Below, piece by piece: positions 12,031-64,000 of a stretch of 64,000 bases of DNA. The stretch's first letter is position 1. Every line of letters begins with the position of its first letter. The notes under the pieces are model-generated. The model saw only the letters and a program-made list of their open reading frames with translations, ran no database searches and was not told the origin of the DNA. Source of the DNA: an uncultured Acidobacteriota bacterium (GTDB taxonomy: Bacteria > Actinomycetota > Acidimicrobiia > Acidimicrobiales > SHLQ01); the NCBI GenBank assembly GCA_963732655.1, contig CAVTAI010000006.1:34306-98305 (forward strand), read 5' to 3'. The translations under genes and the position numbers were made by a program.

Positions 12031-12107
12031 GCCGGCGGTGACTTCTGAGCCGGCGGAGCTGGCGGTGATTTCTGAGCCGGCGGAGCCGGCGGTGACTTCT
12101 GAGCCGG
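12022..12107. repeat. four copies of GAyTTCTGAGCCGG spaced 18, 27 and 27 bp apart
   Basis: Copy 1 contains the SDR stop (gat ttc TGA, 12028-12030). TCTGAGCCGG recurs at 12026, 12044, 12071 and 12098, always in the same frame. Confidence 0.85.
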
Positions 12108-29023: not shown

Positions 29024-30202
29024 TCAGCGCTCCCCACGGCTGTCACGAGCGGTGCCGGCTCGTCTGATCATCGTCGCCATGGTCTCGTGGTAGTGGGCGA
29101 TCTTGCACTCTCGTTCGTTGAGGATGTTCGCCCGGTAGGCGCTCGACCGCTTGGTCCGAGCGAGCTGCTCGTAGATGCCGATGTCCTCGGCGACCACATC
29201 TTTGAGGTGCTGCCAGTGCGCCGACATGCGGGCGCGGTACTCGGCGTAGTCGGGATCGTCGGTGTCGCCGGGATAGGCGATCTCCCAGCACAGGAACCGG
29301 GTGCGATCGACGTCGATCGGGATCGGGTTGAAGACCTGGATGTGCTCGGGGTTGCAGTTGAACACCGTGTTCGGGAACACGACGTAGTGGCAGATCGCGT
29401 ACTGGTGGTGATCCCAGTCCTCCGCCAGCTTCTCGCGGTGCTGCTGGCGGGGCACGAAACACATGTAGTTGTGGTCGTTGACGATGTGAAAGGTGGTGTC
29501 ACGAGCGGACTTCACCCAGTCGGCGCCGACGTTGTGCAGCTCGCTCGTGTGGTAGATCTCGTTGAAGCCGTCGACGATGGCCTTGTAGCTGACGGGGACA
29601 TCCCACTCCAGCACCTCCACCAGCTCCATGTCCTCCATGCGGTACTGGCCGAGGTCGGCCAGGATGTCCGGGCCGATCCAGTCCCGCAGGCTCGGCGCCT
29701 GGTCCGGGCCGGCCAGGTTCACGAACACCCAGCCGCCCCACTCGTCGGCGGCGACCGCCGGAGCGCGCACACCCTCGAGGTGTTCGGGGGCGAAGTCCTG
29801 CCGCTCGGGAACGCCGACGAGCTTCCCCGTGGTGTCGTACACCCAGCCGTGGTAGGGGCACGTGAACCGCCGGGCGCCGCACCCGGACCATTCGGTGACG
29901 AACGACGGGCCCCGGTGTCGGCACACGTTGTGGAACGCGGCCAACGAACCATCCGGCTGGCGGGTGATGACCACCGTCTCGCCGTGACTCTCGAAGCTCA
30001 GCCAATCCCCCGGGTCCGCCACCTGCGTCGATCGACCGGCGAGGAGCCACGTGGTGTTGAGCACCTGCTGGCGTTCGAGCTCGAACTGCATCGGGTCCGT
30101 GTAACAGGACCGATCGAGCACTGCCGGTCCGTAGTCCGGCAGGTTCGGGACCGACGGGCCCAGCCGGACCGGCACCTCACCACGTGTTGGCACATGAACC
30201 AT
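29024..30202 (-). CDS. Rieske oxygenase alpha subunit (paralog 3)
   Basis: CRHRG ... CPYHGW; iron motif NEIYHTSELH. Confidence 0.9.
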   Translation of the reverse strand: MVHVPTRGEVPVRLGPSVPNLPDYGPAVLDRSCYTDPMQFELERQQVLNTTWLLAGRSTQVADPGDWLSFESHGETVVITRQPDGSLAAFHNVCRHRGPSFVTEWSGCGARRFTCPYHGWVYDTTGKLVGVPERQDFAPEHLEGVRAPAVAADEWGGWVFVNLAGPDQAPSLRDWIGPDILADLGQYRMEDMELVEVLEWDVPVSYKAIVDGFNEIYHTSELHNVGADWVKSARDTTFHIVNDHNYMCFVPRQQHREKLAEDWDHHQYAICHYVVFPNTVFNCNPEHIQVFNPIPIDVDRTRFLCWEIAYPGDTDDPDYAEYRARMSAHWQHLKDVVAEDIGIYEQLARTKRSSAYRANILNERECKIAHYHETMATMIRRAGTARDSRGER

Positions 30203-30226
30203 CGGGCTGCCCCCTTGACCGTTCCA

Positions 30227-30261
30227 CTCGACGGGCCCGACTCGACGGGCCCGAATCGACG
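30227..30261. repeat. 14-bp tandem repeat CTCGACGGGCCCGA, 2.5 copies
   Basis: Identical copies at 30227-30240 and 30241-30254, then the partial copy atcgacg. Lies in the divergent Rieske/TetR intergenic region. Confidence 0.8.
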
Positions 30262-30276
30262 TTTCACCTAACAGAT

Positions 30277-30286
30277 GTTATATAAC
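30277..30286. promoter_or_regulatory. perfect palindrome GTTATATAAC, 5 nt upstream of the TetR start
   Basis: This is the only strongly AT-rich stretch in this intergenic region. It could be an operator and/or a -10 element for a leaderless TetR mRNA. Confidence 0.5.
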
Positions 30287-30291
30287 CACAC

Positions 30292-30873
30292 ATGCCACGC
30301 GCCGTCGACGCCGACCAGCGACGGACGGAGTTCACCGACGCCGCCTCCCGCATCATCGCTCGCTCCGGCGTCGAAGCGGCGACCATGCGCGAGGTGGCCG
30401 CCGAGGCCGGTTGGACCACGGGCGCCGTCACCCACTACTTCGCGGACAAACGGGAGCTGCTGCTGGCCACCCTCCAGGACTCCCTGGCCAACCGGCGGGC
30501 CCAGCGTCCGGACCCGGGGGCGGCGAACCCCGAGGAGCGACTGTGGGCCTCCCTCGTCGGCGCCCTGCCGTTGGACGACGACCGGCGACGCCACTGGCTG
30601 GTCACGCTGGCCTTCGCCACCCAGGCCGCCGCCGATGCCGAACTGGCCACCGCGCAGCGCGGTGCCTACCGGGAGTTCCGGGGCCACATCCAGAGCCTGG
30701 TCGAAGCAGCAGGACTGGCGGACGCCCGGGCCAGCCAGACGCGGGCCGAGCAACTCATCGCCGCCGCCGACGGCATCGCCATCCAGGCCCTGTTCGACCC
30801 GGGGGCGTGGACTCCCGCCCGGCAGGCGTCGACCCTCGAGGCGATGTACCGCACGGCGCTCGGTCGCCACTGA
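30292..30873 (+). CDS. TetR family transcriptional regulator
   Basis: HTH TMREVAAEAGWTTGAVTHYFADKREL. Confidence 0.9.
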   Translation: MPRAVDADQRRTEFTDAASRIIARSGVEAATMREVAAEAGWTTGAVTHYFADKRELLLATLQDSLANRRAQRPDPGAANPEERLWASLVGALPLDDDRRRHWLVTLAFATQAAADAELATAQRGAYREFRGHIQSLVEAAGLADARASQTRAEQLIAAADGIAIQALFDPGAWTPARQASTLEAMYRTALGRH

Positions 30874-49358: not shown

Positions 49359-49880
49359 TCACACCTGCGACGTGCTGCGCCCGGCCGGGGAGTTGGCGAA
49401 CATGGCCTCGCTGTCGAAACCGATGCGGGCATCCGGCACGACCTCGATGACGACGCGGCCCGGCGAATCGAGGTGGTGGACGAACGCCGCCTGCTTCTCC
49501 GCGCTGTCCGGCCGGACGCGCGCCGCCAAGGCCTGGTAGAACCACGCCTTGGTGTCATCGTCGTCGTGGACGGTCGCCGTGCCCTTGTAGGTGACGGCCT
49601 GACTGATGCCGATGTCGGTCCCCCGACTCGTGATGGCCACGGCGACCCGGGGCCGGGCCATGATCGCCGGCACCCGCTTACGGCGCTTCGTACAGGTGAG
49701 CCAGAACCGATCGTCGCGCGGGACGAAGTTCATGATCACCCCGACCGGATCGCCGGTGGCGGTGGTCCACATGAAGGTGCACTCGGTCTGTTTGTCGAGG
49801 AGGACCTGCTCGCGCCCGTCGTCGAGCGTGAAGATCGAGACATCTTCGTAGGAGTCCACGTAGTCAGCGTCGTCAGCCAT
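49359..49880 (-). CDS. pyridoxamine 5-phosphate oxidase-like (flavin/F420-binding split-barrel) protein
   Basis: Size and beta-barrel-like pattern. GAGAGG lies 8 nt upstream of the ATG. Confidence 0.75.
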   Translation of the reverse strand: MADDADYVDSYEDVSIFTLDDGREQVLLDKQTECTFMWTTATGDPVGVIMNFVPRDDRFWLTCTKRRKRVPAIMARPRVAVAITSRGTDIGISQAVTYKGTATVHDDDDTKAWFYQALAARVRPDSAEKQAAFVHHLDSPGRVVIEVVPDARIGFDSEAMFANSPAGRSTSQV

Positions 49881-49888
49881 GTTCCCAG

Positions 49889-49951
49889 CCTCTCAATGTC
49901 CCTGTCCTCTCAATGTCCCTGTCCTCTCAAGGTCCAAGCCTCTCAACTTCC
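49889..49951. repeat. 17-bp tandem array, four units (two identical, two diverged); minus-strand core TTGAGAGG
   Basis: cctctcaatgtccctgt twice (49889-49905 and 49906-49922), then cctctcaaggtccaag, then cctctcaacttcc. The array fills the gap between the SDR stop and the PPOX start. Confidence 0.85.
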
Positions 49952-50690
49952 CAACATCCCGCCATCGACGGCGAGGGCATGGCCGGTGGTAAACGACGCT
50001 GCGTACGAGCACAACCACAAGGCCGCGGCGGCGATCTCGTCGGGCCTACCGAACCGGCCCAGCTTCGACAACCGGCCGGCGGTCTCCTCGGCGTCTCGAC
50101 CGCGCCGGCACCATGGCGTTGCGCAACATCGGCGTGTCGATGGCGCCCGGGCAGATGGCGTTGACCCGGATGCCGTGGGTTCCGTAGTCGAGCGCAGCCG
50201 ACCGAGTGAGCCCGAGCACGGCGTGTTTGCTCGCGGTGTACGCGGGCTGGTTTCCCTGGGGTCGGAACGAGTTCGTCGAGGCGATGTTGACGATGGACCC
50301 TCCCCCGCCGGTAAGCATGGCGGAGATCTCGTGCTTCATGCACAAGAACACCGACCGGGCGTTGACCGCCATCATCCGCTCGTAGTCGGCTTCCTCACAC
50401 TCGTGGAGCGGCACCATCTCGAACTCGATGGCGGCCGCGTTGACCGCGGCGTCCAGCCGACCGAACCGGTCGAGGGCGGTACCCACGATGCGCTCCACGT
50501 CGGCGTTCACCGACACGTCGCCGGCCACGCCCACGACATCGGCGCCGAGTCCGGCCAGTACTTCGGCGTCGAGGTCCGACGCCACCACCCGGGCACCGGC
50601 ATCGACGAAGGCCGCCACGATCGCCCGCCCCATCCCCCCGGTGGCCCCGGTAACGATCGTCACCCGGCCCTCCATCGCTCCATCGCTCAT
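49943..50690 (-). pseudogene. SDR family oxidoreductase, frameshifted near 50100-50105
   Basis: [11 protein letters not shown] ... [12 protein letters not shown] ... [13 protein letters not shown] lies in ORF 50046..50915. The canonical C-terminus [52 protein letters not shown] lies in a third frame ending at 49943. The switch is in a gcgcg run. Confidence 0.8.
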
Positions 50691-50773
50691 CGCGGCACGT
50701 CCTTCCACGCCTTGTCTCCGCTCACGGGTCGGCCAACAAGGCTCATCGCGGCACGTCCTTCCACGCCTTGTCT
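50685..50773. repeat. 33-bp perfect direct repeat (50685-50717 and 50741-50773), the core of a 56-bp junction duplication
   Basis: gctcatcgcggcacgtccttccacgccttgtct occurs twice. Copy 2 is the 3-prime end of the ACAD gene. Copy 1 abuts the SDR start. Confidence 0.9.
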
Positions 50774-52005
50774 TTGTCCACTCTCGGTTCACCGGGGAGG
50801 CCGAGGACCCGTTCGGCCATGATGTTGCGCTGCACCTCATCGGAGCCGCCGGCGATGCGGTAGCCGGGTGCCCCGGTGACGTGCTCGACCCACTCGAACG
50901 TGCCCCACTCACCACTGTCGGCGAGCAGGCGCGGTCCGAGGATGTCCCCCACCACGTCGGTGATGAGCCGCATGCCCTCGGTCCACATGAGTTTGCCGAT
51001 CGAGCCTTCGGGACCGGGTTGGGCGCCGGCCTGGCGCATGTCGGCCGTCCGCCGGTTCACGAAGCTCTGGAGCCGCGTGGAGGTGTAGACCTGCATGAGG
51101 CGCTGCCGCATCACGGGATCGGCGGTGACACCGAGGTGCTGGGCCAGCGCGATCACGTGCGGCCAGGCCCCACCCGCCCGCGCCGTGCCCGAGCCGCTCT
51201 TGTCGCGCTCGAAGCTGAGCGTGGTCAATGCCACGTTCCAGCCGTCGCCCACCTCCCCCAACCGGAGCGCGTCGGGGAAGCGAGCGTCGGTGAAGAACAC
51301 CTCGTTGAACGACGCCCCGCCACTCATCTGCTTGATGGGTCGGATCTCGACGCCGGGGGCATCCATCGGGACGAGGAAGGCGGTGAGCCCTCGGTGCTTC
51401 ACCACGTTCGGATCCGAGCGAGCGATGAGCAGGCCCCACGGGGAGAACATGGCACCGGAGCTCCATGTCTTCTGGCCACTGATCACCCACTCGTCGCCGT
51501 CGCGCTCGGCCCGGCACGCCAATCCGGCGAGGTCGGAACCGGCGCCCGGTTCGGAGAACAGCTGGCAGCAGAGGAACTCGGCGCTGAGCAACGGAGCGAC
51601 GAACCGCTCCTTCTGCTCGGGGGTGCCGAACCGGTCGACCGTGGGTGAGATGAGCCCGGTGGTGACGCTGAAGGTCTCGTGCCGGCCGGGGGTCACGTAC
51701 TCGGATTCGAGTGCGGAGAAAGCGTAGGCGTGCTCCTTGCCGAGGCCCAGCCCACCGATCTCGGGGCGTGCGGTCACCGCATGGTAACCCCGGGTGGCCT
51801 TGAGCTGTTGCCAGGCCATGAGCCGCTGGAGGAGGCTCCACTCCTCGGCCCGATCGAGAGCGTGGAACACGGCGACGCTGAACGTGCCGTCGCCCCAGGC
51901 CACGTCGACGTTCTCGCCATCGGTGCTCGAACGGCGCTCAGCATGGTGATCCAGCCAGGTGCGCGCCTCGGCGGCGAACTCGTCGACGGTGGGGGGAGCG
52001 GCCAT
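50743..52005 (-). CDS. acyl-CoA dehydrogenase
   Basis: ACAD layout, with a C-terminal [12 protein letters not shown]-type motif. Confidence 0.9.
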
Positions 52006-52026
52006 GGATCCAGGTTCCTGATGCGA

Positions 52027-53361
52027 TCAGCGGGCGGGGGTGAGCTCGAGGTCGAGGCGTTTGAGGCCTCGCAGCATGAAGCTCGGGTGGTACTCGTAGG
52101 AGTTGCTCTCCGCCAGCCGGAACGACGCCACACGGGCGGACAGCTCTTCGAGCGCGACTCGCGCCTCGAGCCGTGACAGGTTCGCGCCGACGCAGTAGTG
52201 GATGCCCTTGCCGAACGCCAGGTGGTTGACGAGGTTCGAGCGGTCGGGGTCGAACGTGTCCGGGTCGACGAAGTGGCGTTCGTCGCGGTTGGCGGACGTG
52301 TACATCAGCACGATGCGCCGCCCGGCCGGGATGGCGACGCCGCCGAGCTCGACATCGCGGGTGGTGATCCGCCACATGCCCTGGGTCGGGGTCGACAGGC
52401 GGAGCACCTCCTCGATGATCGGCTTGGCGAAGGACGGGTCGTGCCGGACCTGGTGCCACCGCTCCGGATGTCGGCCGAGCAGGAGCATCATCTCGGTGAG
52501 CAGCTTCGTGGTCGTCTCGTTGCCCGCGACCAGCAGCTGCGAGAGGATCGACTGCATCTCACTCATGGTGAGCGGCTCGTCCGGCAGATCAGGATCCTCG
52601 GCTGGGTCCGCGTTGGCCGTGTCGATCCCGGCCGTGTCGATCCGGGCGGTGACGAGCCGGGACAAGATGTCGTCGCCGGGCTCGGCGCGACGACGCTCGA
52701 GCTGCTCGGCGAAGAAGTGCTGCATCTCGATCTGGCCCATCTCGGCGGCCATGCGCTGGTCGGGAGTGAGCGACGCCCCGATGGGCGCGACGTTGTCATC
52801 GCTCCAGCGTTTGAAGTCGGCCAGGCGATCATCGGGGACCGCCAGCGCCTTGGCGATGGTCTCCACCGGGAGCGGTACGGCGAACTCGGCGACGAACTCG
52901 ATGCCCCCGTTGCCGATCCACGAGTCGATCAATCGGCGGGTGATGGCCCGGATGGCCGGTTCGAGGTCGGTGATCGACCGGGGGGTGAAGGCTTTGGAGA
53001 CGAGCTTGCGGTACCGGGTCTGTTCGGGCGGATCGGCACTCAACATGGTCGGAACGGCTGGCCACCCGCCGTGGTCCTCACGCAGCTGCCGGAGCCGGGC
53101 GGCGAGCTCGGGATCGGCCGGCATGCCGGCGCTGCCGAACTTCGACGAGTAGGTCGAGGGATCCCGAAGGACCTCCAGCACGAGGTCGTGCGTGGTGACC
53201 AGCCACACCGGCATGCCGAGGGCGTCGGTGGCGTAGACGGGTGCCCCCGATCGCATCGCCGCGTAGTAGGCGTGGGGCTGCTGCTGGATCTCGGCGTCGA
53301 ACAGGCCGAAGTCGGCCAGATCCACGAGATCGCGCCCGGCGACAAGACGTTCGCTGGTCAT
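52027..53361 (-). CDS. cytochrome P450
   Basis: AGNETT I-helix, EEVLRL, heme loop FGKGIHYCVGANLSR. Confidence 0.9.
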   Translation of the reverse strand: MTSERLVAGRDLVDLADFGLFDAEIQQQPHAYYAAMRSGAPVYATDALGMPVWLVTTHDLVLEVLRDPSTYSSKFGSAGMPADPELAARLRQLREDHGGWPAVPTMLSADPPEQTRYRKLVSKAFTPRSITDLEPAIRAITRRLIDSWIGNGGIEFVAEFAVPLPVETIAKALAVPDDRLADFKRWSDDNVAPIGASLTPDQRMAAEMGQIEMQHFFAEQLERRRAEPGDDILSRLVTARIDTAGIDTANADPAEDPDLPDEPLTMSEMQSILSQLLVAGNETTTKLLTEMMLLLGRHPERWHQVRHDPSFAKPIIEEVLRLSTPTQGMWRITTRDVELGGVAIPAGRRIVLMYTSANRDERHFVDPDTFDPDRSNLVNHLAFGKGIHYCVGANLSRLEARVALEELSARVASFRLAESNSYEYHPSFMLRGLKRLDLELTPAR

Positions 53362-53414
53362 GGCCCCCTCCTCGTTCGCCCCGGTTCCCAGTGGCCGCTA
53401 CGTTAGCCGAAGTA

Positions 53415-53428
53415 ATTAACCGGTTGAT
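53415..53428. promoter_or_regulatory. ATTAACCGGTTGAT, the reverse complement of the 14-mer at 45492-45505
   Basis: Centred in the 95-bp divergent intergenic region between the two P450 genes. Confidence 0.55.
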
Positions 53429-53456
53429 AGGTGGCGACACAGTGGGGGTCTCGGCC

Positions 53457-54659
53457 ATGGCGAACGATCCCGGGCTCGATCACCTGGTTCCCTCCGTTCG
53501 GATCGACCCGACCCCCGTCTACGCCCGCATGCGAAGCGAGTGCCCCGTCCTCCATCGAGCCGACCTCGACCCGCCGTTCTATGTGGTCTCGCGCCACGAG
53601 GATGTGGCGGACCTGCTCCGCGACGATCGCCGGTGGCGCAACGGTGAAGGCCCGGGCGTGTTCCGCCAGCAGGGCGGAGTGCTCGGGTCAGCCGATGACC
53701 CCGACCATGCCCGCCAGAGGGCGGCGCTGCGCCCCAACTTCCTGCCGACGGCGATCGCCCGCCTCGAGCCGCGAGTCGCGATGCTCGCCGATCAGTGTTT
53801 CGAGGACTTCGTTCACCTTGGCGAGGGTGACTTCGTCTCGCGGTTCGCCTTCCCGTTCCCCGCTCAGGTGATCGCCGAGCTCCTCGGCGTTCCCGCGGAG
53901 CAGCGGGACGCCTTCGGGCGCTGGGCGAGTCAGATCGTGGCCACCCTCGGCAACGGTGACACCGACCAGTACCAACGCGTCACCGCCGAGATGTGGGCCT
54001 GCATCGACGGCGAAGTCGAGCGACGCCTGGCGCTCCACCAGGGCGGCGCCGAGCTCCCCGCCGACACGTTGTCGACCATGGTCCTCGCCCACCTCGACGG
54101 ACAGCTGAGCCGGGAGGAGATCCGGCGGCTCGGGCACCAGCTCCTGGTGGCCGGCCACGAGACCACCAGCGGCCTACTCGGGCTGCTGATGCTCCGGCTG
54201 ATCCAAGTTCCCGAGATGCTGACCTCTGTTCGGGCCGATCGCGCCCTCATCCCGGCGGTGGTCGAGGAGGCGTTGCGCTTCGACTCGCCCGTCCAGGGAC
54301 TCTTCCGGACGAACGAGTCGCCGTGCCGCGTCGGCGAGGCCGACATCCCGGCCGGATCCAAAGTCCAGGTCATGTACGCCTCGGCCAACCGGGACCCTGC
54401 GGTGTGGCCGGATCCCGACGAATTCCGTCTCGACCGTGACCCCCGGAAAGCGCGCAGCCACCTGGCGTTCGGATGGGGACTCCACTACTGCATCGGCGCG
54501 CCGCTGGCTCGTATGGAGATCCGGCTGGCGCTCGACCGTATCCTCGACCGGATGCACGACATCGAGCTCATCGGTGAACCCGAGAGCGAGTCCCCCTTCG
54601 TCCTCCACGGGCTGAGCCGCCTGCCGATCCGCTGGACCGCCGGAGGTCCACCCTCGTGA
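53457..54659 (+). CDS. cytochrome P450
   Basis: AGHETT I-helix, EEALRF, heme loop FGWGLHYCIGAPLAR. Confidence 0.9.
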   Translation: MANDPGLDHLVPSVRIDPTPVYARMRSECPVLHRADLDPPFYVVSRHEDVADLLRDDRRWRNGEGPGVFRQQGGVLGSADDPDHARQRAALRPNFLPTAIARLEPRVAMLADQCFEDFVHLGEGDFVSRFAFPFPAQVIAELLGVPAEQRDAFGRWASQIVATLGNGDTDQYQRVTAEMWACIDGEVERRLALHQGGAELPADTLSTMVLAHLDGQLSREEIRRLGHQLLVAGHETTSGLLGLLMLRLIQVPEMLTSVRADRALIPAVVEEALRFDSPVQGLFRTNESPCRVGEADIPAGSKVQVMYASANRDPAVWPDPDEFRLDRDPRKARSHLAFGWGLHYCIGAPLARMEIRLALDRILDRMHDIELIGEPESESPFVLHGLSRLPIRWTAGGPPS

Positions 54660-55453
54660 ACCGCAGACTCATCGCCTGCGATGTCGACGGCACCCTGGCC
54701 CGCAGCGACGGCACCTTCAGCGACCGCACACGCGCCGCGCTCGCCGCCGCGAGCGCGGCCGGCCACATCGTGGTCATCGCCACCGGGCGCCCGTACCGCG
54801 TCGCCCTCCGGGCCGCCGAGGAGCTCGACGTCGAGTGCTACATGGTGTGCTCCAACGGTGCGATGGTCGTCGACGACACCGGCGCGACACTCGTCGACCA
54901 CTACCTGGGCACCGAGCTCGTGCCGGAGCTGGTGCCCCATCTGCGCACCCGGGTGGACCAGATCGCTTTCGGTTTCGAGTTCGAACGCGGCGTGCGGGCC
55001 GAGGCCGGCCTGGCCGAACGCCTCCCCCCCGGCGTGCCGCTGGGCGACCCGGTCGACGACATCTTGCACTTGCTGGAGCTCGGTCGACCGGTGCGCAAGC
55101 TGCTGGCCTGGACCAACGACGGCCTCGACCTCGGCCCGCTCCGCGACGTGCTGCTCGAGACGGTGGGTGAGCGAGGCCACGTGTCGAACACGGGGCTCGC
55201 CTTCATCGACATCGGGCCCGCCGGGATCACCAAGGCCGTGGCCCTCGACTGGTTGTGCGGACACTTCGAGATCGACGTCGACCGGTCCGTGGCGTTCGGG
55301 GACGAACGCAACGACCTCGAGATGCTGGCGTGGGCCGGGATGGGCGTCGCCGTCGCCAACGCGGTGTCGGAGGCCATCGCCGTCGCCGACCGAATCACGC
55401 TGTCGAACGACGACGACGGCGTCGCCGTGGTCATCGAGGAGCTGCTCAGCTGA
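54656..55453 (+). CDS. Cof-type HAD-IIB phosphatase
   Basis: DVDGTL motif I and GDERNDLEML motif IV. The GTG overlaps the P450 stop. Confidence 0.85.
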   Translation: MNRRLIACDVDGTLARSDGTFSDRTRAALAAASAAGHIVVIATGRPYRVALRAAEELDVECYMVCSNGAMVVDDTGATLVDHYLGTELVPELVPHLRTRVDQIAFGFEFERGVRAEAGLAERLPPGVPLGDPVDDILHLLELGRPVRKLLAWTNDGLDLGPLRDVLLETVGERGHVSNTGLAFIDIGPAGITKAVALDWLCGHFEIDVDRSVAFGDERNDLEMLAWAGMGVAVANAVSEAIAVADRITLSNDDDGVAVVIEELLS

Positions 55454-55474
55454 ACGGGCGAGATCTCGCTCAGC

Positions 55475-57004
55475 TCACGACTGGGCCCAGTACGGCGCCC
55501 GGAGCTGACGTTTGTTGACCTTGCCCATGGCCGACCGGCCGAGGTCGGCCACCACCTCGACCCGGCGCGGACACTTGTAGTGGGTCAGGCGATCGCGGCA
55601 CCACGCCACCAGCTCACCTGACTCCGGCGGGGCCTCCGGATCGGCGGCCATCACCAGCGCGATGAGCTCCTCGCCCATCTCGGCGTGGGGCACCCCGATA
55701 CACGCCACGTCGACGACCTCGGGATGTTGGATCAGGACCTGCTCGGCCTCGGCCGGATAGATGTTCACACCACCAGACACGACCATGTCCGAGAACCGAT
55801 CGGTGATGAAGACGTAGCCGTCGTCGTCGAGGTAGCCGATCTCGCCGAGGGTGAACACCCCAGGCGCGATGTGGGCGGCCGCCGACTTCTCGGGATCGTT
55901 GTGGTACACGATCCCGCGCCCCGTGGTGTCGCGGAAGAAGAGGCGGCCCTCCGTGTTCGGCGGAGCCGGCTGATCGTCATCGTCGATGACCAGGGCCTCG
56001 AACGGAGCGATCGCTCGACCCACCGAGCCGGGATGGGCCAGCCATTCCTCACTCGAGATCTGGCAGGTCGTGCCGGTCTCGGAGGCACCGTACGCCTCGA
56101 CGAACACCGGGCCCCACCAGTCGATCATGGCCCGCTTCACCGCCACCGGGCACGCGGCGCCGGTGTGGGACACGAGCTTCACGGACGACACGTCGTACCG
56201 GGCCCTGACATCGTCAGGCAGAGCGAGGAGCCGCACGAAGTGGGTGGGGACCATGACCGACGTCTCGATCCGGTAGGTCTCGATCGACGCCAACGTGGCC
56301 TCGGTGTCGAACCGGCCCTGGACCACGACCGGGATGCCGCCGGCCAGGAGTCGGGCGCCCGACAACGGCCCGGTGTGGTACATCGGGCCGACCACGAGGT
56401 GGGTGCCGAACGAGGCGAACCGGCTCGTGGCCAGGTTCGCCACGTGCTCGGTCATGGTGGCGCCACCAGCGAACAGGGTGGGCGGCTGCACGGTGCCCTT
56501 GGGCCGGCCGGTCGTGCCCGACGTGTAGATGAGCGGCGGCTGCGGGACGAGGTCGCTCGACGGTTCGGCGGGGTCGGCCCCGGCGAGCCAATCGTCCCAG
56601 CCCAAGACACCCTCGGTCGGCTCACACCCCCAGGCCACGACGGTGCCGACTCCGGCCTCGTCGGCTGCCGCGACCGCACGATCGATCGTGTCCGGCCCGG
56701 CGAAGATCACACTGACCCCGGCGTCGGCGAAGATGTACGCCGCTTCGGGCGCGGTCAGATGGAAGTTGGTCGGGACGTTCGAGGCGCCGGCGAACAGGCC
56801 ACCGAGGTGGGCGAGCGCGGTGTGGGCCGAGTTCTCGGCGAACAGCGCCACGCGATTCCCGTCGCCCAGACCACGCGCCAGGAGAGCGTTGACCGCCCGA
56901 TTCACGATGTCGTCGACCTCGGCCCACGTGAAGGCGTTCGCGGGGTCGCGCAGGGCAGTCTCGTCGGGGTGGTTGGACGCTTTGGCTCGGGCGAATGGGG
57001 GCAC
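55475..57004 (-). CDS. acyl-CoA synthetase / AMP-dependent ligase
   Basis: YTSGTTGRPKGT, GEIGYLDDDGYVFITDR, C-terminal GKVNKR. GAGGAG lies upstream of GTG 57004. Confidence 0.85.
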   Translation of the reverse strand: MPPFARAKASNHPDETALRDPANAFTWAEVDDIVNRAVNALLARGLGDGNRVALFAENSAHTALAHLGGLFAGASNVPTNFHLTAPEAAYIFADAGVSVIFAGPDTIDRAVAAADEAGVGTVVAWGCEPTEGVLGWDDWLAGADPAEPSSDLVPQPPLIYTSGTTGRPKGTVQPPTLFAGGATMTEHVANLATSRFASFGTHLVVGPMYHTGPLSGARLLAGGIPVVVQGRFDTEATLASIETYRIETSVMVPTHFVRLLALPDDVRARYDVSSVKLVSHTGAACPVAVKRAMIDWWGPVFVEAYGASETGTTCQISSEEWLAHPGSVGRAIAPFEALVIDDDDQPAPPNTEGRLFFRDTTGRGIVYHNDPEKSAAAHIAPGVFTLGEIGYLDDDGYVFITDRFSDMVVSGGVNIYPAEAEQVLIQHPEVVDVACIGVPHAEMGEELIALVMAADPEAPPESGELVAWCRDRLTHYKCPRRVEVVADLGRSAMGKVNKRQLRAPYWAQS

Positions 57005-57045
57005 GACGAGTCTCCTCGGGAGGGTCCGGACAGGTGATCGATCGG

Positions 57046-57498
57046 CTAGGACGGAATCGAGAACGGGCCCGACAGATCGCCGGGACCGCGATACAACACC
57101 CGCAGCCGTCGTGAGCCGAACAGCCAGCCGCGCTGCAGATCGCGCACGTACTCGTCGTCGTACCAGGCGAGCAGCACCTGCGCCGGCCCGCCCTCGGCTT
57201 TGGCGTGCTCCATGACGTACACCCGGCCCGTTGCCCTCGACCCGTCGACCACGGCGGTCGAGTTCATGGCGTTCTGCACCACGTTGGCGTACCGGCCCAT
57301 CGCGGCCGTCCACGTCTCCACGATGGTCGTTCGACCCGATACCTCCCCGCGGCCGAGGTCCCACACCGCGTCGTCGGACCATGTCGCGGACCACGCGTCG
57401 GCATCGCGCCGGCACACGGCATCGCAGTAGCGATGGATCAGATCGGCGATGGCGATCCGATCGGCGAGATCGGAACCGGTTGCGGTGTCGTCGGTCAT
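57046..57498 (-). CDS. SnoaL/NTF2-like protein
   Basis: DRIAIADLIHRYCDAVCRRD pattern. The ATG overlaps the upstream TGA. Confidence 0.75.
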   Translation of the reverse strand: MTDDTATGSDLADRIAIADLIHRYCDAVCRRDADAWSATWSDDAVWDLGRGEVSGRTTIVETWTAAMGRYANVVQNAMNSTAVVDGSRATGRVYVMEHAKAEGGPAQVLLAWYDDEYVRDLQRGWLFGSRRLRVLYRGPGDLSGPFSIPS

Positions 57499-58442
57499 GA
57501 GGTGCCTTTCGGGGGACGGTCGGTGAGGTCGACGAGCCGGCGCAGGAAGGTCTGGTGCAGGGCCGTCCCGATGGCGACCATGTTGGGGGCCCGGTTCTCG
57601 CCTCGCGCCAACACGGCCCCGCAGGTCAGGTTGGCGCAGGCGCCCTTGAACAGGTTGAACGCCTCCCAGTAGTGCCAGTCGGCGGGGGCGATGCTGACGT
57701 GCGCCACCCGCTCGAACACGGCACCCCACGAGTCCCTCGACATCGTGCGCGACCCTCGCATGGCGGCGCAGAAGACCCAGTCCTCTCGGACATCACCCAG
57801 GTGGGTGAACTCGAAGTCGGTCAACGCCACCACCTCACCGTCCCTGCCGAACAGGGCGTTGCCGGGGCCGGCGTCGCCGTGGACCACCGACACCTGGGGG
57901 CACGGCGGGGCGTGAAGATGCAGCCAGGCGGCCGCCTCCTCGAGCAGGGGCACGGGCACGACCGTCGCCGATCGGGCCACGGCGTGCCATCGCTCGACCT
58001 GCCCGTGGGTGGCGTCGGCCGGCGACGGTACGGCGTCGAACGCCAGCCCGGCGGGATCGACCGCGTGCACGGCCGCGAGGGCGCCGACGAGCGCTTCCGC
58101 GGCCCGGTCGTCGAGCGTGCGCTCGTCGGCCGATGGAGCGACGGAGGGCACGAAGTCCATGACGAAGAAGGGCTGCCCGATCACCGCACCCGAAGGCTCG
58201 GACCAGCGGACATGAGCGACCGGCACCCCTCGCTCGGCCAGGCCGGCCATGACGCGGAACTCCTCGGCGCTCGACGTGCCGAACACCCCGCCCTGCTCCA
58301 CCCGCGCCACGTACTCGGACCCGTCGTCGACGGACACACGCCACATGGCCCGGGAGTGGCCGGTCGCGATCCGGCTCAGCTCGACCACCTCGGTCGGCAC
58401 GCCCCGCCGCTCGCCGAGCCAGGCGGCCAGCTGGTCACGCAT
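57495..58442 (-). CDS. aminoglycoside-phosphotransferase-fold kinase (alternative start 58454)
   Basis: Catalytic loop VVHGDAGPGNALF and the Mg-binding segment LTDFEF. Confidence 0.8.
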   Translation of the reverse strand: MRDQLAAWLGERRGVPTEVVELSRIATGHSRAMWRVSVDDGSEYVARVEQGGVFGTSSAEEFRVMAGLAERGVPVAHVRWSEPSGAVIGQPFFVMDFVPSVAPSADERTLDDRAAEALVGALAAVHAVDPAGLAFDAVPSPADATHGQVERWHAVARSATVVPVPLLEEAAAWLHLHAPPCPQVSVVHGDAGPGNALFGRDGEVVALTDFEFTHLGDVREDWVFCAAMRGSRTMSRDSWGAVFERVAHVSIAPADWHYWEAFNLFKGACANLTCGAVLARGENRAPNMVAIGTALHQTFLRRLVDLTDRPPKGTS

Positions 58443-58974
58443 CAGCCGGCCCACCGCCGGGCCGCACGCCCTCGGGCAGGCGTCCGCGGAATCCGGGCAC
58501 GGTCGAGGCCGACCGCGCCAGATCGTCGTCGAGGTGGGCGACGAGCAGGGGCCGCAGCACCCGGCGCACCTCCTCGGCCTCGGCGCGGACGTCGGGCTGG
58601 GCGGCCGGCGCCGCGTCCGGATCGAGGGCCGACACGGCGTCGGCCAGCGCCCGGCCCGCGGCGGTCATGACCGCCAGGGCGTTCGGTTCACCGTCCCACG
58701 AGACGAAGCGGTTCCCGCCGAGTGACGACAGCGCCCCGGCCAGCTCGGCCACCCGGGCGGGGTGGGGGTCAGCGCCGCGCTCCCTCGCATAGGTGGCCAC
58801 GCCCATGAGCTGGAGCGCGGCCGATCGCGCCCACTCGTCGGTCAGCGCGGGCAGGATCACGTTGCGCAGGGTGTCGTCGACGCTGGCCCACAGATCGTCG
58901 TCGGACGGCCAGCTCGGATTGGCCGACGGATCCGCCGGCCGTGTCGGATTCGCCGGCCTGGTCGGGTCGCTCAC
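58435..58974 (-). CDS. hypothetical helical protein, translationally coupled to the kinase
   Basis: The GTG overlaps the upstream TGA. Pro/Thr-rich repeat PTRPANPTRPADPSANPS at the N-terminus. No motif recognised with confidence. Confidence 0.55.
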   Translation of the reverse strand: MSDPTRPANPTRPADPSANPSWPSDDDLWASVDDTLRNVILPALTDEWARSAALQLMGVATYARERGADPHPARVAELAGALSSLGGNRFVSWDGEPNALAVMTAAGRALADAVSALDPDAAPAAQPDVRAEAEEVRRVLRPLLVAHLDDDLARSASTVPGFRGRLPEGVRPGGGPADA

Positions 58975-60005
58975 GCGGTGCCGCCCGGGCGTGACGAGCC
59001 GCTGAGCCGGTCGGCCAGCGCCGCCTCCAGCTCGAAGTCGTAGGAGGACCGCCACACCGGGTCGACGAGGGCGTCCGAGCGGTCGGCCAGTCCCTCGGCC
59101 AGGAACCATTCGTAGGCATGCTCGTGACCGGACGCCAGGTGGAAACGCGGCGCTGGGAGCGAAGCCAGGTACTTCCCGGTGTCGAGCATGGCGTGGTGCC
59201 GCCGGCCGAAGAGGTGGCCGAAGACCGGTCGGTCGATCTCGGCGAGGGCCGAGTCGGGGACGGCGACGAGACGGGGTTCCGCCCCGACCACTGCGGCGAG
59301 CGTGGCCACGTAGCGGTTGACGTCGACCGAATCCGTGGTCACGTTGACCACCTCACCGATGAGGACGCCGCCCGAGGCGATGGACACCATCGCCGCGCCC
59401 AGGTCGTCGACGTGGCCGTAGCTGCCGACCACCAACCCACCGTGAGGAACGAGGATCGGCCGACCCTGCCGCAGCCGCAGGAACATGGCCGCTTCCATGT
59501 CGTAGATGTTGTTGCTCGGCCCGTAGATGGCGGCGGGTCGCACGATCGTGGCCGGGAAACCGCGGGTGCGGTGACGGGCGAGGATCGCCGCCTCGGCGAC
59601 CGCCTTGAACCCGCCGTAGGTGGACGGGCCGTCGGGGTTGGTCGGCAGGTCCTCGGTCCACGGGAACACACCTACCAGCGACTGGTCGTAGGCCATGATC
59701 GAGCTGACGTACACGTGGTGGCCGACCCGGCCGTCGAGCAGGTCGAGCAAACCGTCGATGTCACCACCACCCGCGGCCATCACGAACCCGGACACGTCGA
59801 ACGTGGCGTCCCACTCGGTACCGGCGAGGGCGGCTCGCATCTGTTCGAGGTCCGTGCGATCGGCCGTGAGCTGACGGACGTCATCGGTGAACGACGTGGG
59901 TGTGACGCCCCGGTTGAGGACCGTCACGTCGTGTCCCCCGGCCGCCAGCGTCTCGACGAGCCGCCGGCCGACGAAGACCGAGCCTCCGAGCACCAGCGCC
60001 TTCAC
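58971..60005 (-). CDS. NAD-dependent epimerase/dehydratase family protein
   Basis: VLGGSVFVGRRL Rossmann motif and YGGFK (YxxxK). Confidence 0.85.
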   Translation of the reverse strand: MKALVLGGSVFVGRRLVETLAAGGHDVTVLNRGVTPTSFTDDVRQLTADRTDLEQMRAALAGTEWDATFDVSGFVMAAGGGDIDGLLDLLDGRVGHHVYVSSIMAYDQSLVGVFPWTEDLPTNPDGPSTYGGFKAVAEAAILARHRTRGFPATIVRPAAIYGPSNNIYDMEAAMFLRLRQGRPILVPHGGLVVGSYGHVDDLGAAMVSIASGGVLIGEVVNVTTDSVDVNRYVATLAAVVGAEPRLVAVPDSALAEIDRPVFGHLFGRRHHAMLDTGKYLASLPAPRFHLASGHEHAYEWFLAEGLADRSDALVDPVWRSSYDFELEAALADRLSGSSRPGGTA

Positions 60006-61243
60006 CCGCCCTCCTCCGACAGTCCGGGCCACGGTCCGAGCACGACGCACTCCAGGTGGCCGTACCCGACGTCGGCCGGATCGTCGAGGTTCGTGATGCG
60101 GGCCCAGGTCTCGGCCCAGGCGTTACGAGGGCGGGCCCGGCCGGTCGGGTCGACGATCCGCGTGGGATGGGACACGTCCCACACCTCGCCCTCGATCAGG
60201 TGCTCGCCCCGGTAGACGCCCCGACCACGGCCGTCGGCGTAACCGTTCCAGTACCCCCCGCCCAGGCAGTACGCCGGGCCACTGAGGACCTCGAGGGCGA
60301 AACGCTCGGCACCACCGTCGATCCGCGTCAGCGACGCGCCGTGGTCTGGTCGAGTGAACTCGACCGTGCCGGCACGCATGCGGCGCAGCGGCGCACCACC
60401 GTCAGGATCGTCAACGAAGGTCACCGCGGCGTCGACATCCCTGTACGCCCACGACGGTCCGGGCTCGCCAGGGTCCGCACCCGCCTCGCCTTCAAGCCGA
60501 CCGAAGCCGGGCACGACCTGACTCTCGAAGCGGGTGACCTCGCCGTCGAAGCGGCGATGGAACTGCCAGAACAGCGCCCGGTCGGGCATGCGGAACATCG
60601 CCCACTGGCGCAGGCCGAGCGGCGGGTCGGGGTCGAGGGGGGCGGCGTCGGGGTGCTTCGGGCCGCCGACGCTGCCAACGCCCCAGGAGTGGTCGCGCAC
60701 CCCCGCCCAGCCCGACGGGTCGACACCGAACCGTCGCCCGTCGATCTCGATCCACCCAGTGACGTCACACGTCTGGTCGAAGTTCGAACGCTCGCTCACC
60801 AGTCGGCCGGCCCGGTAGTTGATGAGGTAGTCCTCGATGTAGGCCGGAGCGGTCCCCCGCCAGTCGAGCTCGAACGCGATGTGGTGGTCGTTGGGGGCAC
60901 ACGCCGTGCGGAGGTGGCGCAGCCCCTCGACGATGTCGACGGCGAGCGGCGGGCACGAGAGGTCGTCGTTGGCAGGCCGAAGACGGCGCGAGACGCGGAG
61001 GTTGTACTGCCGGCCGCCCGTGGACACGACGGCGAACCCGTCGAGCACGTCGTTGTTCGGGTACAGCCGGAACCCCATGAGGAGGAGCACCTCGCCGGCG
61101 TGATCGCCGAGGGCGAAGTAGTACCCGTCGCTCCAGTGCGGCGACGGGTTGGCCACGGTGTCGAACGTGGCCGCCGTCTGGTGGCGGGGCCACTCGTCGA
61201 GCGCGGTGAGCCGGAAGCGCAGTGACTCGTGATCGGTCGGCAC
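60002..61243 (-). CDS. conserved hypothetical protein (413 aa)
   Basis: GC3-rich codon usage, coupled by GTGA to the downstream gene. Contains RDHSWGVG. No family assigned. Confidence 0.65.
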   Translation of the reverse strand: MPTDHESLRFRLTALDEWPRHQTAATFDTVANPSPHWSDGYYFALGDHAGEVLLLMGFRLYPNNDVLDGFAVVSTGGRQYNLRVSRRLRPANDDLSCPPLAVDIVEGLRHLRTACAPNDHHIAFELDWRGTAPAYIEDYLINYRAGRLVSERSNFDQTCDVTGWIEIDGRRFGVDPSGWAGVRDHSWGVGSVGGPKHPDAAPLDPDPPLGLRQWAMFRMPDRALFWQFHRRFDGEVTRFESQVVPGFGRLEGEAGADPGEPGPSWAYRDVDAAVTFVDDPDGGAPLRRMRAGTVEFTRPDHGASLTRIDGGAERFALEVLSGPAYCLGGGYWNGYADGRGRGVYRGEHLIEGEVWDVSHPTRIVDPTGRARPRNAWAETWARITNLDDPADVGYGHLECVVLGPWPGLSEEGG

Positions 61244-61246
61244 TGG

Positions 61247-61774
61247 TCAGCCCCCCGCCCGCTCGCCGAGCTCGCGGGCGGTCACCTGGGCCCGCTCGCC
61301 GAGCTCGCGGGCGGTCACCTGGGCCCGCTCGCCGAGCTCGCGGGCGGTGTCCATGATCGACCGGTCGCCTCTCTCCCATTGCACGTTGAGCGTGATCGCG
61401 CGGAGCCGCCAGCCGTCGGGCCGGCGCACCAAGGTGTCGACGTAAAACCCGCCGACGGTGAAGATCTTCTCGCCGAGCACATGGTCGGCCACCACGTACA
61501 TCTCGCAGACCGCCTGGTCGTCGTCGATGCGAACCCGGGGGTTGGTCATCGAGTGCTGCGACGCGTCGAGACCCTGGAACAGCGGAATGAGGTTCGCGAC
61601 CCAGTCGTCGGCCGACACGGTTGCGGCCGGACGGCCGTTCCACGACGAGAAGTCGACAAGCACGTCGGTGTCGAAGATCGCCCGGTAGCCCTCCCAGTCG
61701 CGCCGATCGACCCCCCAGGCGTACGAGTAGACCGTCTCGACGACGGCCAACCGGTCCTCGGCCGAACCCCTCAT
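61247..61774 (-). CDS. SnoaL/NTF2-like protein with a repeated C-terminal tail
   Basis: LAVVETVYSYAWGVDRRDW pattern. The tail is TARELGERAQV twice plus TARELGERAGG. Confidence 0.75.
   Translation of the reverse strand: MRGSAEDRLAVVETVYSYAWGVDRRDWEGYRAIFDTDVLVDFSSWNGRPAATVSADDWVANLIPLFQGLDASQHSMTNPRVRIDDDQAVCEMYVVADHVLGEKIFTVGGFYVDTLVRRPDGWRLRAITLNVQWERGDRSIMDTARELGERAQVTARELGERAQVTARELGERAGG
61257..61348 (-). repeat. 33-bp in-frame tandem repeat, 2.8 copies, at the 3-prime end of the SnoaL gene
   Basis: gcccgctcgccgagctcgcgggcggtcacctgg at 61257-61289 and 61290-61322, then a partial third copy. Confidence 0.9.
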
Positions 61775-61834
61775 CGCGACAGGCCTCTCATCGCAACAGG
61801 CCTCTCATCGCGACAAGCCTCTCATCGCGACAAG
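61768..61834 (-). repeat. 17-bp tandem array (4 units) forming three ATGA-chained 6-codon mini-ORFs
   Basis: Minus-strand unit ATGAGAGGCYTGTYGCG. Mini-ORFs at 61805-61825, 61788-61808 and 61771-61791. Confidence 0.9.
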
Positions 61835-62961
61835 ATGGTGACGCCGCTGATGCCGGGCGCCCCGTAGACGTGGGTGTAGGCCACCTGTGGATCGCCCGGG
61901 ACCTGGCGCTCGCTGGCGTCGCCGCGCAGCTGCAGCACGTTCTCGTAGACCTGGCGCAACCCGGACGCGCCGATCGGCTCACCGTTGGCCAGGCATCCAC
62001 CGTCGGTGTTGACGGGGAGCCGTCCGCCGATCTCGGTCTCGCCCCGGGCGAGCATGGCTTCCTGCTCCCCGTGCTCGCAGAAGCCGTTCTCGGCCATGTG
62101 CATGACCTCCGCACCGGCCTCGGTGTCCTGCAGCTGGGCGACGTCGACATCGGAGGGGCCGAGGCCGGCCATCTCGAACGCGGCGAGCGATGCGTCGACG
62201 GTCGGGCCGGCGTTGGTCTCGACGGCGATCGACGGCGCCAGGACCTCGAAGCTCCCGAAGCGTCGCGTGCGCACCACGACGGACCGGAGGAACACGGGCC
62301 GGTCGCTGAAGTTGTGGGCCTGGTCGGCCCGGCACAACACCAGGGCCACGCCCCCTTCGCCCGGGTTGCAGAACATGTACTGCGTGAGCGGGTACGACAG
62401 CATCGTGGCCGAGAGGATCTCCTCCTCCGACAGGGGCTTGCGCCGCCACGCCATGGGGTTGAGCGCGCCGTTGCGGTAGGCCTTCGCCGCCACCTTGGCC
62501 AGGGACGCCGAGGTGATGCCGTGATCGTGCATGTACCGGTTGATCTTCATGGCGAAGAACTGCGTGGTGAGGGCGAGCCCCGAGGCGCCGTACCACTCGC
62601 CCTGGCCCCGGTTGCTCGGGGTGAAGGCGCCACGCTCGTGTTTGTCGAACCCGACCACGACACCGAGGTCGTAGAGGCCCGACTGGATGGTGTTGTAGGC
62701 CGAGAACAGGGCGCTACCACCGGTGGCGCACCCGTTGACGACGTTGACGAATTGCAATCCGGTGAGCCCGAGCTGGCCGACCATGCTGTCGGCGGATCCC
62801 GACGAATGGCTGCCTCCGACCGCGAACTGGATGTCGGCCCAGCCGATGCCGGCGTCGGCGAGCGCCCGGCGGACGGCGACGACTCCCTGCTCGATCCCGG
62901 TCACACCTTCGGTGCGGCCGAACGCGTGCATGCCGATGCCGACGATCGCCACATCGGTCAT
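61822..62961 (-). CDS. thiolase-like (lipid-transfer / SCP-x type) protein
   Basis: Thiolase-fold pattern (VVNGCATGGSA ... GGCLANGEPIGASG). Paired with a DUF35 gene. Confidence 0.85.
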   Translation of the reverse strand: MTDVAIVGIGMHAFGRTEGVTGIEQGVVAVRRALADAGIGWADIQFAVGGSHSSGSADSMVGQLGLTGLQFVNVVNGCATGGSALFSAYNTIQSGLYDLGVVVGFDKHERGAFTPSNRGQGEWYGASGLALTTQFFAMKINRYMHDHGITSASLAKVAAKAYRNGALNPMAWRRKPLSEEEILSATMLSYPLTQYMFCNPGEGGVALVLCRADQAHNFSDRPVFLRSVVVRTRRFGSFEVLAPSIAVETNAGPTVDASLAAFEMAGLGPSDVDVAQLQDTEAGAEVMHMAENGFCEHGEQEAMLARGETEIGGRLPVNTDGGCLANGEPIGASGLRQVYENVLQLRGDASERQVPGDPQVAYTHVYGAPGISGVTILSR

Positions 62962-63404
62962 GAGCCAGGCTCCTCAGCTACGGGTGCGAAGGCGAAGGTG
63001 ACGATGGTGTTGCCGTCGGCATCGGTCGAGAGCGGGACGAGGACGAGCTCCATCGGCATGCCGATGCGCAACCGATCCGGATCGCTCTCGGTGAGCCGGG
63101 CCTCGACGCGAACCTGGCCGGGGAGCTCGACGTAGCCGACGCCGAAGGGTTCGAAGTTCGCGGTGTCGCCTCGATAGGGCGGTGCCTTGGGGGCGAAGGC
63201 CTGCACCGTGAACGTCCACAAGGTGCCGCGTCGGGCCAGCTCGACCGTCTCGAGATCGGTCCCGGTGCACTTGGAGCAGCCGCTCGACACCGGAAACGTG
63301 TGCGTGCCGCACGCTGTGCACCGGCTGCCGAGCAGCGCTGGCTCGGGTCCGTCGGTGAAGACCCCCGGGTTCACCGGAACAGCGGTTGTGGTCTCCGGGG
63401 GCAT
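62958..63404 (-). CDS. Zn-ribbon / OB-fold (DUF35) protein
   Basis: C-x2-C ... C-x2-C ribbon (CTACGTHTFPVSSGCSKC). The stop overlaps the thiolase-like ATG. Confidence 0.8.
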   Translation of the reverse strand: MPPETTTAVPVNPGVFTDGPEPALLGSRCTACGTHTFPVSSGCSKCTGTDLETVELARRGTLWTFTVQAFAPKAPPYRGDTANFEPFGVGYVELPGQVRVEARLTESDPDRLRIGMPMELVLVPLSTDADGNTIVTFAFAPVAEEPGS

Positions 63405-63420
63405 GGAGCCGGATCGTAGC

Positions 63421-63436
63421 AAACTAACCGCGCGAT
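63421..63436. promoter_or_regulatory. AAACTAACCGCGCGAT word, 16 nt upstream of the DUF35 start
   Basis: Identical 16-mer to 38594-38609. Confidence 0.5.
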
Positions 63437-64000
63437 CAATTCTCCGACCGGGCGACGGCGAGCACCGCTCGCATGCCATCGGCCAGCCGCCGGCACCACG
63501 CCGCGGCACGGATCTCGGCCTGGGTCGACGACGGCGCTTCGATCGAGATCGGCGCGGTCGTGCCCGAGGCGTCGAGAACCCGGATCAGCGAGCCGAGGTC
63601 GAACTCGCCGTCGCCCGGTGCCCGGCGGTTGAGGAGGCAGTCGGACCGGTAGTCGAGGTCCGGGTCGGCCTGGGCGATCGTGCCGTCGTTGAGCTGGATG
63701 GCGACGATCCGGTCGCCCGGTAGCGCGGCGATCTGATCCAGATCGCGGGCGCCCCGCTCGTGGTGCCAACTGTCCACACAGACGCCGCCGTTGGTGCGCC
63801 CGGCCGCGTCGACGACCGCGCCGGCCGTGCGGGCATCGGTCACCGCGGTGTAGGGCAGGTACTCGATGCCGACGGTGAGGCCGTGGGCGGCGGCCCGATC
63901 ACACAACGCGGCGAACCCGTCAGCGGTCGGCTCGACCCCGGGGGAACCGATGCCCTGGAGGTAACGGACACCGAGGGTGTCGGCCAGCTCGTAGGCGAGA
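63436..64000 (-). CDS. sugar phosphate isomerase/epimerase (xylose isomerase-like TIM barrel), partial; N-terminus lies beyond the window
   Basis: The frame stays open to the window edge (LAYELADTLGVRYLQ ... GIEYLPY ... DSWH). Confidence 0.7.
   Translation of the reverse strand, partial: LAYELADTLGVRYLQGIGSPGVEPTADGFAALCDRAAAHGLTVGIEYLPYTAVTDARTAGAVVDAAGRTNGGVCVDSWHHERGARDLDQIAALPGDRIVAIQLNDGTIAQADPDLDYRSDCLLNRRAPGDGEFDLGSLIRVLDASGTTAPISIEAPSSTQAEIRAAAWCRRLADGMRAVLAVARSEN

Follow-up and report, generated by a model that had tools for sequence, protein, structure and literature searches.

The closest described system to the array reported here is MIRU, whose units measure about 46-100 bp, belong to a dispersed homologous family with dozens of loci, and are regarded as mobile. 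According to PMC12548453 (citing Supply 1997), these repeats lie in mycobacterial operons, and their internal ORF and the gene next to it are coupled at -4 nt, so that the impact of the insertion is minimised. Translational coupling is best when stop and start are -4 to +3 nt apart, fades beyond about 30-40 nt and is enhanced by an SD, with -4, -1 and -8 as the favoured spacings (PMC12548453). The same source states that short ORFs are able to deliver ribosomes to a downstream gene, that the efficiency of reinitiation depends on spacing and SD, and that the reinitiation and the RNA-unfolding models of coupling are still debated. Synthetic bicistronic designs place the SD of the gene of interest inside a short leader ORF that terminates on the start of that gene (ref. 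78 in PMC12548453). Where co-directional genes are separated by a short spacer, a TGA fused to GAGG is a generic stop/SD composite, known as TGAGG in E. coli (PMC2784483). Contingency loci of the classical kind turn genes on or off by a coding frameshift or by a change of promoter spacing. We know of no characterisation of serial reinitiation by way of very short ORFs in bacteria, and a literature search of incomplete coverage found no description of mini-ORF arrays derived from a gene junction.

In the DNA analysed here (a stretch of 64,000 nucleotides, hereafter the window), such an array joins a thiolase-like gene of the Ltp/SCP-x type (61822..62961, minus strand; ORF list, Pfam Thiolase_C_1/Thiolase_N) to a SnoaL_4-family gene (61247..61774, minus strand, 5′ end MRGSAEDRLAVVE...; ORF list, Pfam SnoaL_4, orthologues P0001-P0004). 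When the minus strand was read base for base, positions 61825..61775 were found to consist of three 17-nt units with the consensus ATGAGAGGC[T/C]TGT[C/T]GCG, which is the chain of three mini-ORFs that had been proposed in the preliminary description. The thiolase-like ORF ends in ...ATC TTG TCG CGA TGA, and mini-ORF 1 (ATG AGA GGC TTG TCG CGA TGA) starts with an ATG that overlaps this stop (TGA, 61824..61822), which counts as the array's first TGA. The units, all on the minus strand, are 6-codon ORFs, and the TGA of each overlaps the ATG that follows: unit 1 (ATGAGAGGCTTGTCGCG, 61825..61809) opens mini-ORF 1, MRGLSR* (61825..61805), unit 2 (ATGAGAGGCCTGTTGCG, 61808..61792) opens mini-ORF 2, MRGLLR* (61808..61788), and unit 3 (ATGAGAGGCCTGTCGCG, 61791..61775) opens mini-ORF 3, MRGLSR* (61791..61771), whose TGA overlaps the SnoaL start ATG at 61774. 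The GAGG of unit 3 is located 9 nt upstream of this ATG. Relay tracing across the array gave four -4 overlaps in succession, and TRF agreed with this arrangement (period 17, 3.7 copies, 93% matches, score 112, far above chance). The unit tails matched the last 9 nt of the upstream gene (CTTGTCGCG) at 9/9, 7/9 and 8/9 positions, and the unit heads matched the first 8 nt of the downstream gene (ATGAGGGG) at 7/8, so that the earlier proposal of a unit made of an 8-nt head of the downstream gene and a 9-nt tail of the upstream gene also stands. The C-terminus of the thiolase-like protein, ...ILSR*, is conserved across 80 orthologous loci.

The array sits between co-directional genes of an operon and has the orientation of the genes that flank it. 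A ChsH2-type zinc-ribbon/OB (DUF35) gene lies upstream, and DUF7065-like and epimerase genes lie downstream (Pfam). The spacing from the DUF35 gene to the thiolase-like gene is -4, that from SnoaL to the next gene is +3, and those that follow are -4, -4, -8 and -4; hence, the view that the operon is otherwise coupled by 4-nt overlaps applies to most of its junctions, and fails for the +3 junction after SnoaL and for one of -8. No internal promoter or terminator was found at the array, and an Rfam search of 49500..64000 (E<=1) gave no match except for a spurious miRNA elsewhere. A structured RNA or riboswitch-like element was considered and rejected, given the lack of an Rfam match, a fold z-score of only -2.3 and a sequence that is not conserved in the sister genome. 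A protein fusion by frameshifting is unlikely, all three frames being closed by the three TGAs. At the other end of the SnoaL gene, its 3′ end (61257..61348, minus strand) contains a tandem repeat of 33 bp, perfect and in frame (RELGERAQVTA x 2.8), which is present in 2.8 copies in the window vs 1.8 in the sister genome L001 and is absent in the relative L002, and the SnoaL gene has in this way variable tandem repeats at both ends.

The window comes from an Acidimicrobiales-like actinobacterium. Among the 80 orthologous thiolase-like loci, SnoaL was directly downstream in only the two closest. In L002, whose thiolase-like protein has 90% aa identity, the same two genes meet in a bare CGATGACC overlap (-4), and in L081 and L082, where SnoaL is 64-65% identical, they are joined by TGATG (-1). 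The sister genome L001 (98% aa and 94.5% nt identity over 6.2 kb) has three units at this junction, as the window does (ATGAGAGGGCTCGTCGTG / TTGAGGGAATTGTCGAG / TTGAGGGGATTGTCGAG), and none was present in L002, L081 or L082. Since the outgroups have a plain ATGA or TGATG overlap at this junction, the array is an amplification, restricted to this lineage, of a stop/start overlap that was tight in the ancestor, in agreement with the origin from an amplified junction that had been put forward at the outset. Two genomes only, the window's and L001, carry the array. A search for SnoaL homologues found only two close relatives, an exact-protein lookup of the window's thiolase-like protein returned no record, and a protein-guided scan of metagenomes for further SnoaL junctions yielded pattern matches, none of which was confirmed as a relative. 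MAG records with 78-98% identical genes of Acidimicrobiia type (L001, L012, L016, L017, L032 and others) are labelled Acidobacteriota, Bifidobacterium or Pseudomonadales, and these taxonomic labels look unreliable.

The sequence of the array has changed much faster than that of its surroundings. Between the window and L001, 15/52 aligned positions of the array differ (28.8%), compared with 16/294 four-fold degenerate sites in the flanking genes (5.4%; Fisher p=3e-6 for the excess in the array). Units 2 and 3 of L001 have five derived states in common, a hallmark of units that evolve in concert as slippage or conversion recurs. The copies are head to tail and of high identity, they are absent in outgroups and they vary between close relatives, as is the case for VNTRs of the slippage type. 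Tandem arrays occur at 0.20 per kb in the window and 0.34 per kb in its sister, vs 0.063 per kb across 649 kb from other Acidimicrobiia loci (Poisson p=3e-4), and this 3-5 times higher density in the window's genome and its sister suggests a lineage-specific rise in slippage or duplication.

Other strong tandem repeats were found in the window at 16179..16284 (30 bp x 3.5, 96% matches), 12029..12107 (27 bp x 2.9) and 30226..30261 (14-nt x 2.6), the last in an intergenic region from which the ORFs 29024..30277(-) and 30286..30873(+) diverge, and just upstream of both. In the sister genome, a 55/28-nt duplication (L084 9053..9169) extends across the stop of an acyl-CoA dehydrogenase gene (CGCGATGACC... 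/ CGCGGTGACC...), upstream of an SDR gene, and is a further junction duplication in the same lineage. Another Acidimicrobiia MAG carries an intergenic 53-nt x 2.9 tandem repeat (L015 5145..5301), which is MIRU-sized, has a 2-mod-3 period, is located between two co-directional genes and ends in ...TAGATG at the downstream start.

A second junction array was detected in the window at 49881..49946 on the minus strand, from an SDR gene (frameshifted; stop TGA 49945..49943) to a PNPOx-family gene (ATG 49880). Its units of 16, 17, 17 and 16 nt are TTGAGAGGCTTGGACC, TTGAGAGGACAGGGACA twice and TTGAGAGGCTGGGAAC, with the unit motif TTGAGAGG..., and the relay goes through TTGA, 17 codons, TTGA and 7 codons to a -8 overlap with the real ATG. 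This array is absent from the sister genome (L084), which has an ordinary 34-nt spacer with AGGAGAA, and from L085 and L086, which have a 4-nt spacer. The SDR gene (~50046..50690, minus strand) aligns to its homologues in two frames, with residues 5-193 in one and the C-terminal part in another, and the switch lies near 50110; the gene is either truly frameshifted, i.e., a pseudogene, or split by a single-base assembly error. The extra G in unit 1 of L001 and the 16-nt units of the second array could likewise be homopolymer errors. Seven of the 8 occurrences of TGAGAGG in the window fall inside the two arrays, which also have a period of 17 nt and, in their first units, the 11-mer TGAGAGGCTTG in common. 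Chance explains this common period and 11-mer within one 64-kb window only marginally (about p=0.05), and neither is fully explained; on the whole, we favour convergence over a mobile family.

Arrays of the same kind were also found elsewhere. Metagenomes were scanned for TGAGAGG at 16-18-nt spacing, and this was followed by relay tracing on both strands and by Pfam checks. The scan gave >120 pattern matches, mostly unrelated 8-9-nt simple repeats or low-GC sequences, and at least three clear junction arrays were present among the matches listed (L176, L187 and L112); L150, L166 and L182 were not assigned to either group, because the ORFs that flank them have an ambiguous coding signal. In L176, four 17-nt units (ATGATCGGGCTCCTCTC) lie between two ABC half-transporter genes with the identical geometry of an 8-nt head and a 9-nt tail, and their mini-ORFs (MIGLLS*) form a perfect relay, with no GAGG on the coding strand. 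In L187, between a DoxX gene and a beta-lactamase-family gene, 8-nt ATGAGGGG units form MRG* mini-ORFs and the relay is intact. In L112, where six 16-nt units separate an ABC permease gene from an ATPase gene (Pfam), the relay that leaves the upstream stop is out of register and enters a non-coding frame (GC3 0.53), and the real start (GC3 0.88) is reached from the even-numbered units only. Two further cases, both unrelated short duplications located where a gene starts, came from TRF on related loci: in L072 (Ilumatobacter; SDR to ThuA) 14-nt units give MTTAP* and MTSAR* and then an ATGA gene start, and in L037 each 23-nt unit carries GGAGG and an ATG, and MSRVRRSQ* overlaps the ATG of a DUF35 gene. 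The architecture therefore arises repeatedly in unrelated contigs, and not always in the correct register. Such recurrence with imperfect register would be the expected look of a mutational by-product that is filtered only by protein neutrality.

The geometry of the repeat bears directly on whether the relay is selected. Both proteins remain intact because the duplication spans the junction, and the relay is robust to indels because a 2-mod-3 period places a TGA in every frame; any reading frame that goes through the 17-nt array ends on NTGA. The claim that a 17-bp period is exactly what keeps the overlaps is correct as geometry, since a period of 2 mod 3 yields self-contained ORFs that end on the next start, and unsupported if it is taken to mean that the period was selected, since any non-3n period with NTGA chains. 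The non-3n TRF arrays in related loci, which split about 11 vs 7, gave no significant enrichment of 2-mod-3 periods, and we claim no enrichment among NTGA-chain arrays, in which a 2-mod-3 bias is partly definitional and for which the search pattern also restricted the periods. In L001 the relay is intact (ATG, 12 codons, TTGA, 6 codons, ATGA, SnoaL). This intactness is uninformative on selection because the 17-nt period sets successive TGAs in all three frames, and because a neutral simulation, in which 14 substitutions and one indel were applied to the window array, kept an unbroken relay in 35-42% of the outcomes, so that selection on the relay cannot be deduced from its survival in L001. 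A hand estimate gave a chance of about 0.14, not significant, that ~10 independent substitutions would spare every TGA position. Both genomes have exactly three units, and the NTGA and the purine run are kept in every unit; this could reflect constraint, and the tests were not significant.

In each unit, NTGA is accompanied by GAGG 8-9 nt before the next start. In this genome, GGAG or GAGG is found at -16..-5 of 18% of first starts vs 6% of internal controls (e.g., GAGGAGcctggctcATG for the thiolase-like gene), and the unit geometry matches this native RBS spacing. The ancestral-type junctions of L002, L081 and L082 are pyrimidine-rich, with no SD upstream of the SnoaL start, and the window and L001 have GAGG/GAGGGG at -13..-10 of this start. 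When the junction was folded in silico, the probability that the SnoaL start is unpaired was 0.24 with the array vs 0.48 with the array deleted (whole-array fold z = -2.3), so that the start may be less accessible with the array and the effect on expression may not necessarily be neutral. The predicted structure fits a dependence on upstream ribosome traffic better than it fits free-standing initiation.

We consider it probable, with a rough probability of 0.7, that the array is a tolerated, fast-evolving junction VNTR and that the mini-ORF relay is a geometric by-product, which probably preserves coupling. The divergence above the neutral level, the repeat-prone lineage and the out-of-register relay of L112 point to such a tolerated by-product and not to a tuned device. 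An ancestral ATGA/TGATG overlap would have been duplicated as a 17-nt unit, made of 9 nt of the upstream-gene tail and 8 nt of the downstream-gene head, most likely by replication slippage in a lineage rich in tandem repeats, and the duplication would have been tolerated in that it spans the junction and leaves both proteins unchanged. With a 2-mod-3 period, every copy would automatically be a 6-codon ORF with its TGA on the next ATG, and would bring a GAGG 9 nt before the next start, at the native RBS spacing. Ribosomes leaving the thiolase-like gene may then be handed through the three mini-ORFs to SnoaL, or fresh ribosomes may load at each SD-like site. All four steps of the chain are of -4 and fall within the favoured -4/-1/-8 classes. 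If left untranslated, an insert of 51 nt should weaken coupling, because coupling fades beyond about 30-40 nt, whereas with the mini-ORFs it is probably retained, and the effect on SnoaL output may be near neutral. The array is young and has a rapid turnover; there is no evidence of adaptive tuning, and the relay is not a demonstrated adaptation.

We regard as unlikely that the array is an adaptive translational rheostat, or contingency locus, in which unit number is under selection because it governs the expression of SnoaL relative to the thiolase-like gene. Only a fraction of the ribosomes would be passed on at each termination-reinitiation step, or each SD would add new ones, and slippage would be the source of a heritable and reversible tuning. 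Such a device would agree with an array kept in two lineages at three units each, with a sequence as hypervariable as that of contingency loci, with an SD-like GAGG at native spacing in each unit, and with the known variation of reinitiation efficiency with spacing and SD (PMC12548453), and copy number could matter if, as predicted, there is more structure around the SnoaL start in the presence of the array. However, the neutral simulation gave no signal of selection on the relay, that of L112 is out of register and that of L176 lacks an SD, and a 17-nt step switches neither gene's frame on or off. The absence of the second array in the sister genome and a lineage that is globally repeat-rich are, in turn, what mutational pressure would produce. 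A broader reading, to which we give a similarly low probability, is that junction-spanning duplications that regenerate NTGA overlaps are a general, previously unnamed class, retained as a copy-number-adjustable coupler by means of SD-bearing mini-ORFs. Such a class would recur in high-GC bacteria (twice in the window and in L176, L187, L072, L037 and L112) and would set the stoichiometry of neighbouring genes by serial termination-reinitiation.

It is also, in our opinion, quite unlikely that the first duplication was favoured for having placed the GAGG of SnoaL codons 2-3 nine nt upstream of the ATG. A SnoaL gene that had lacked an SD and was purely coupled would thereby have gained its own ribosome-binding site and become decoupled, and the further units would be slippage noise. 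The difference between the SD-less junctions of L002, L081 and L082 and those of the window and L001 is in line with such an acquisition, as is the recurrence of a stop+GAGG composite in the second array, L112 and L187, TGAGG being a known fused stop/SD pattern (PMC2784483). Nevertheless, the metagenome pattern forced TGAGRGG and biased the SD content of those matches, an SD is missing from the coding strand of L176 and L072, the analogues free of this bias, and the array is predicted to sequester both SD and start further.

That the units belong to a 17-nt repeat family, dispersed and possibly mobile, which would insert at stop/start junctions like a miniature MIRU, is very improbable. Two arrays in 64 kb with the same period, an xTGAGAGG core that accounts for nearly all copies of the motif in the window, and a common 11-mer are what one would expect from such a family, but outside the core the units are built from the flanks of their own locus, and 743 kb of related DNA, 30 kb of which come from the sister genome, contain no other copy, so that this candidate was rejected; the core is a stop plus a minimal SD, a generic junction motif (PMC2784483), and the analogues elsewhere have unrelated unit sequences and periods. 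Finally, an assembly or sequencing artefact is extremely improbable, since, even if the genomes are MAGs with a frameshifted SDR gene, and 16- or 18-nt units that differ by single G or homopolymer bases make single-base indel errors possible, the 51-nt array is shorter than any read length, analogous arrays exist in many independent assemblies, and the same site carries the array with a different sequence in the independent assembly of L001, which disposes of the artefact that the preliminary description had named as its refutation.

The tolerated junction VNTR can now be set beside the known systems. It works like MIRU in its -4 coupling: its tandem units lie inside an operon and are oriented as the flanking genes, they contain a small ORF whose stop overlaps the adjacent start at -4 nt, with little impact on downstream translation in the MIRU case (PMC12548453), their copy number varies between relatives, and both occur in high-GC actinobacterial lineages. 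It is not a member of that family, because the unit size (17 nt, built from a local gene tail and gene head) differs and no dispersed homologous family was found, with two arrays only and none more in the 743 kb of related DNA. The original remark that no described array like this was known is not supported, given MIRU (PMC12548453) and the independent natural replicas that turned up in L176, L187, L072 and L037. In common with ordinary -4/-1 overlaps that are coupled by termination-reinitiation or RNA unfolding (PMC12548453; Huber et al. 2019 as cited there), the chain proceeds by canonical NTGA overlaps throughout, a single such overlap formed the ancestral junction, and the SD before each start is placed as in coupled pairs, but there are four consecutive overlaps with 6-codon ORFs between them in place of one. 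Each unit also resembles a natural bicistronic cassette, a short ORF that contains the SD of the next cistron and ends on its start, with the difference that the units here are natural, made by duplication and tandemly iterated. As in slippage VNTRs and contingency loci, the copies of the array run head to tail and evolve in concert, their divergence is well in excess of the neutral point-mutation rate, and close relatives differ in copy number or presence. Unlike the classical contingency loci, the array shifts neither flanking frame and could at most modulate coupling, and it falls outside the phase-variable ones in being located between two intact ORFs with no promoter-like site.

The array would be an origin-by-slippage counterpart to MIRU. 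Even if it is neutral, a non-3n tandem duplication over a stop/start overlap in a densely packed operon spares both proteins and remakes the overlap in every copy, which explains why unrelated genomes arrive at this architecture again and again. Arrays of this sort are to be expected in gene calling and annotation, and the flanking genes should not be lengthened or shortened on their account. Should the arrays have a role beyond mere persistence, nature would have supplied an allelic series that varies in the number of reinitiation steps (0, 1, 2, 3...) and in nothing else, with which one could gauge how efficiently ribosomes of bacteria reinitiate after very short ORFs and could separate the reinitiation model from that of RNA unfolding.
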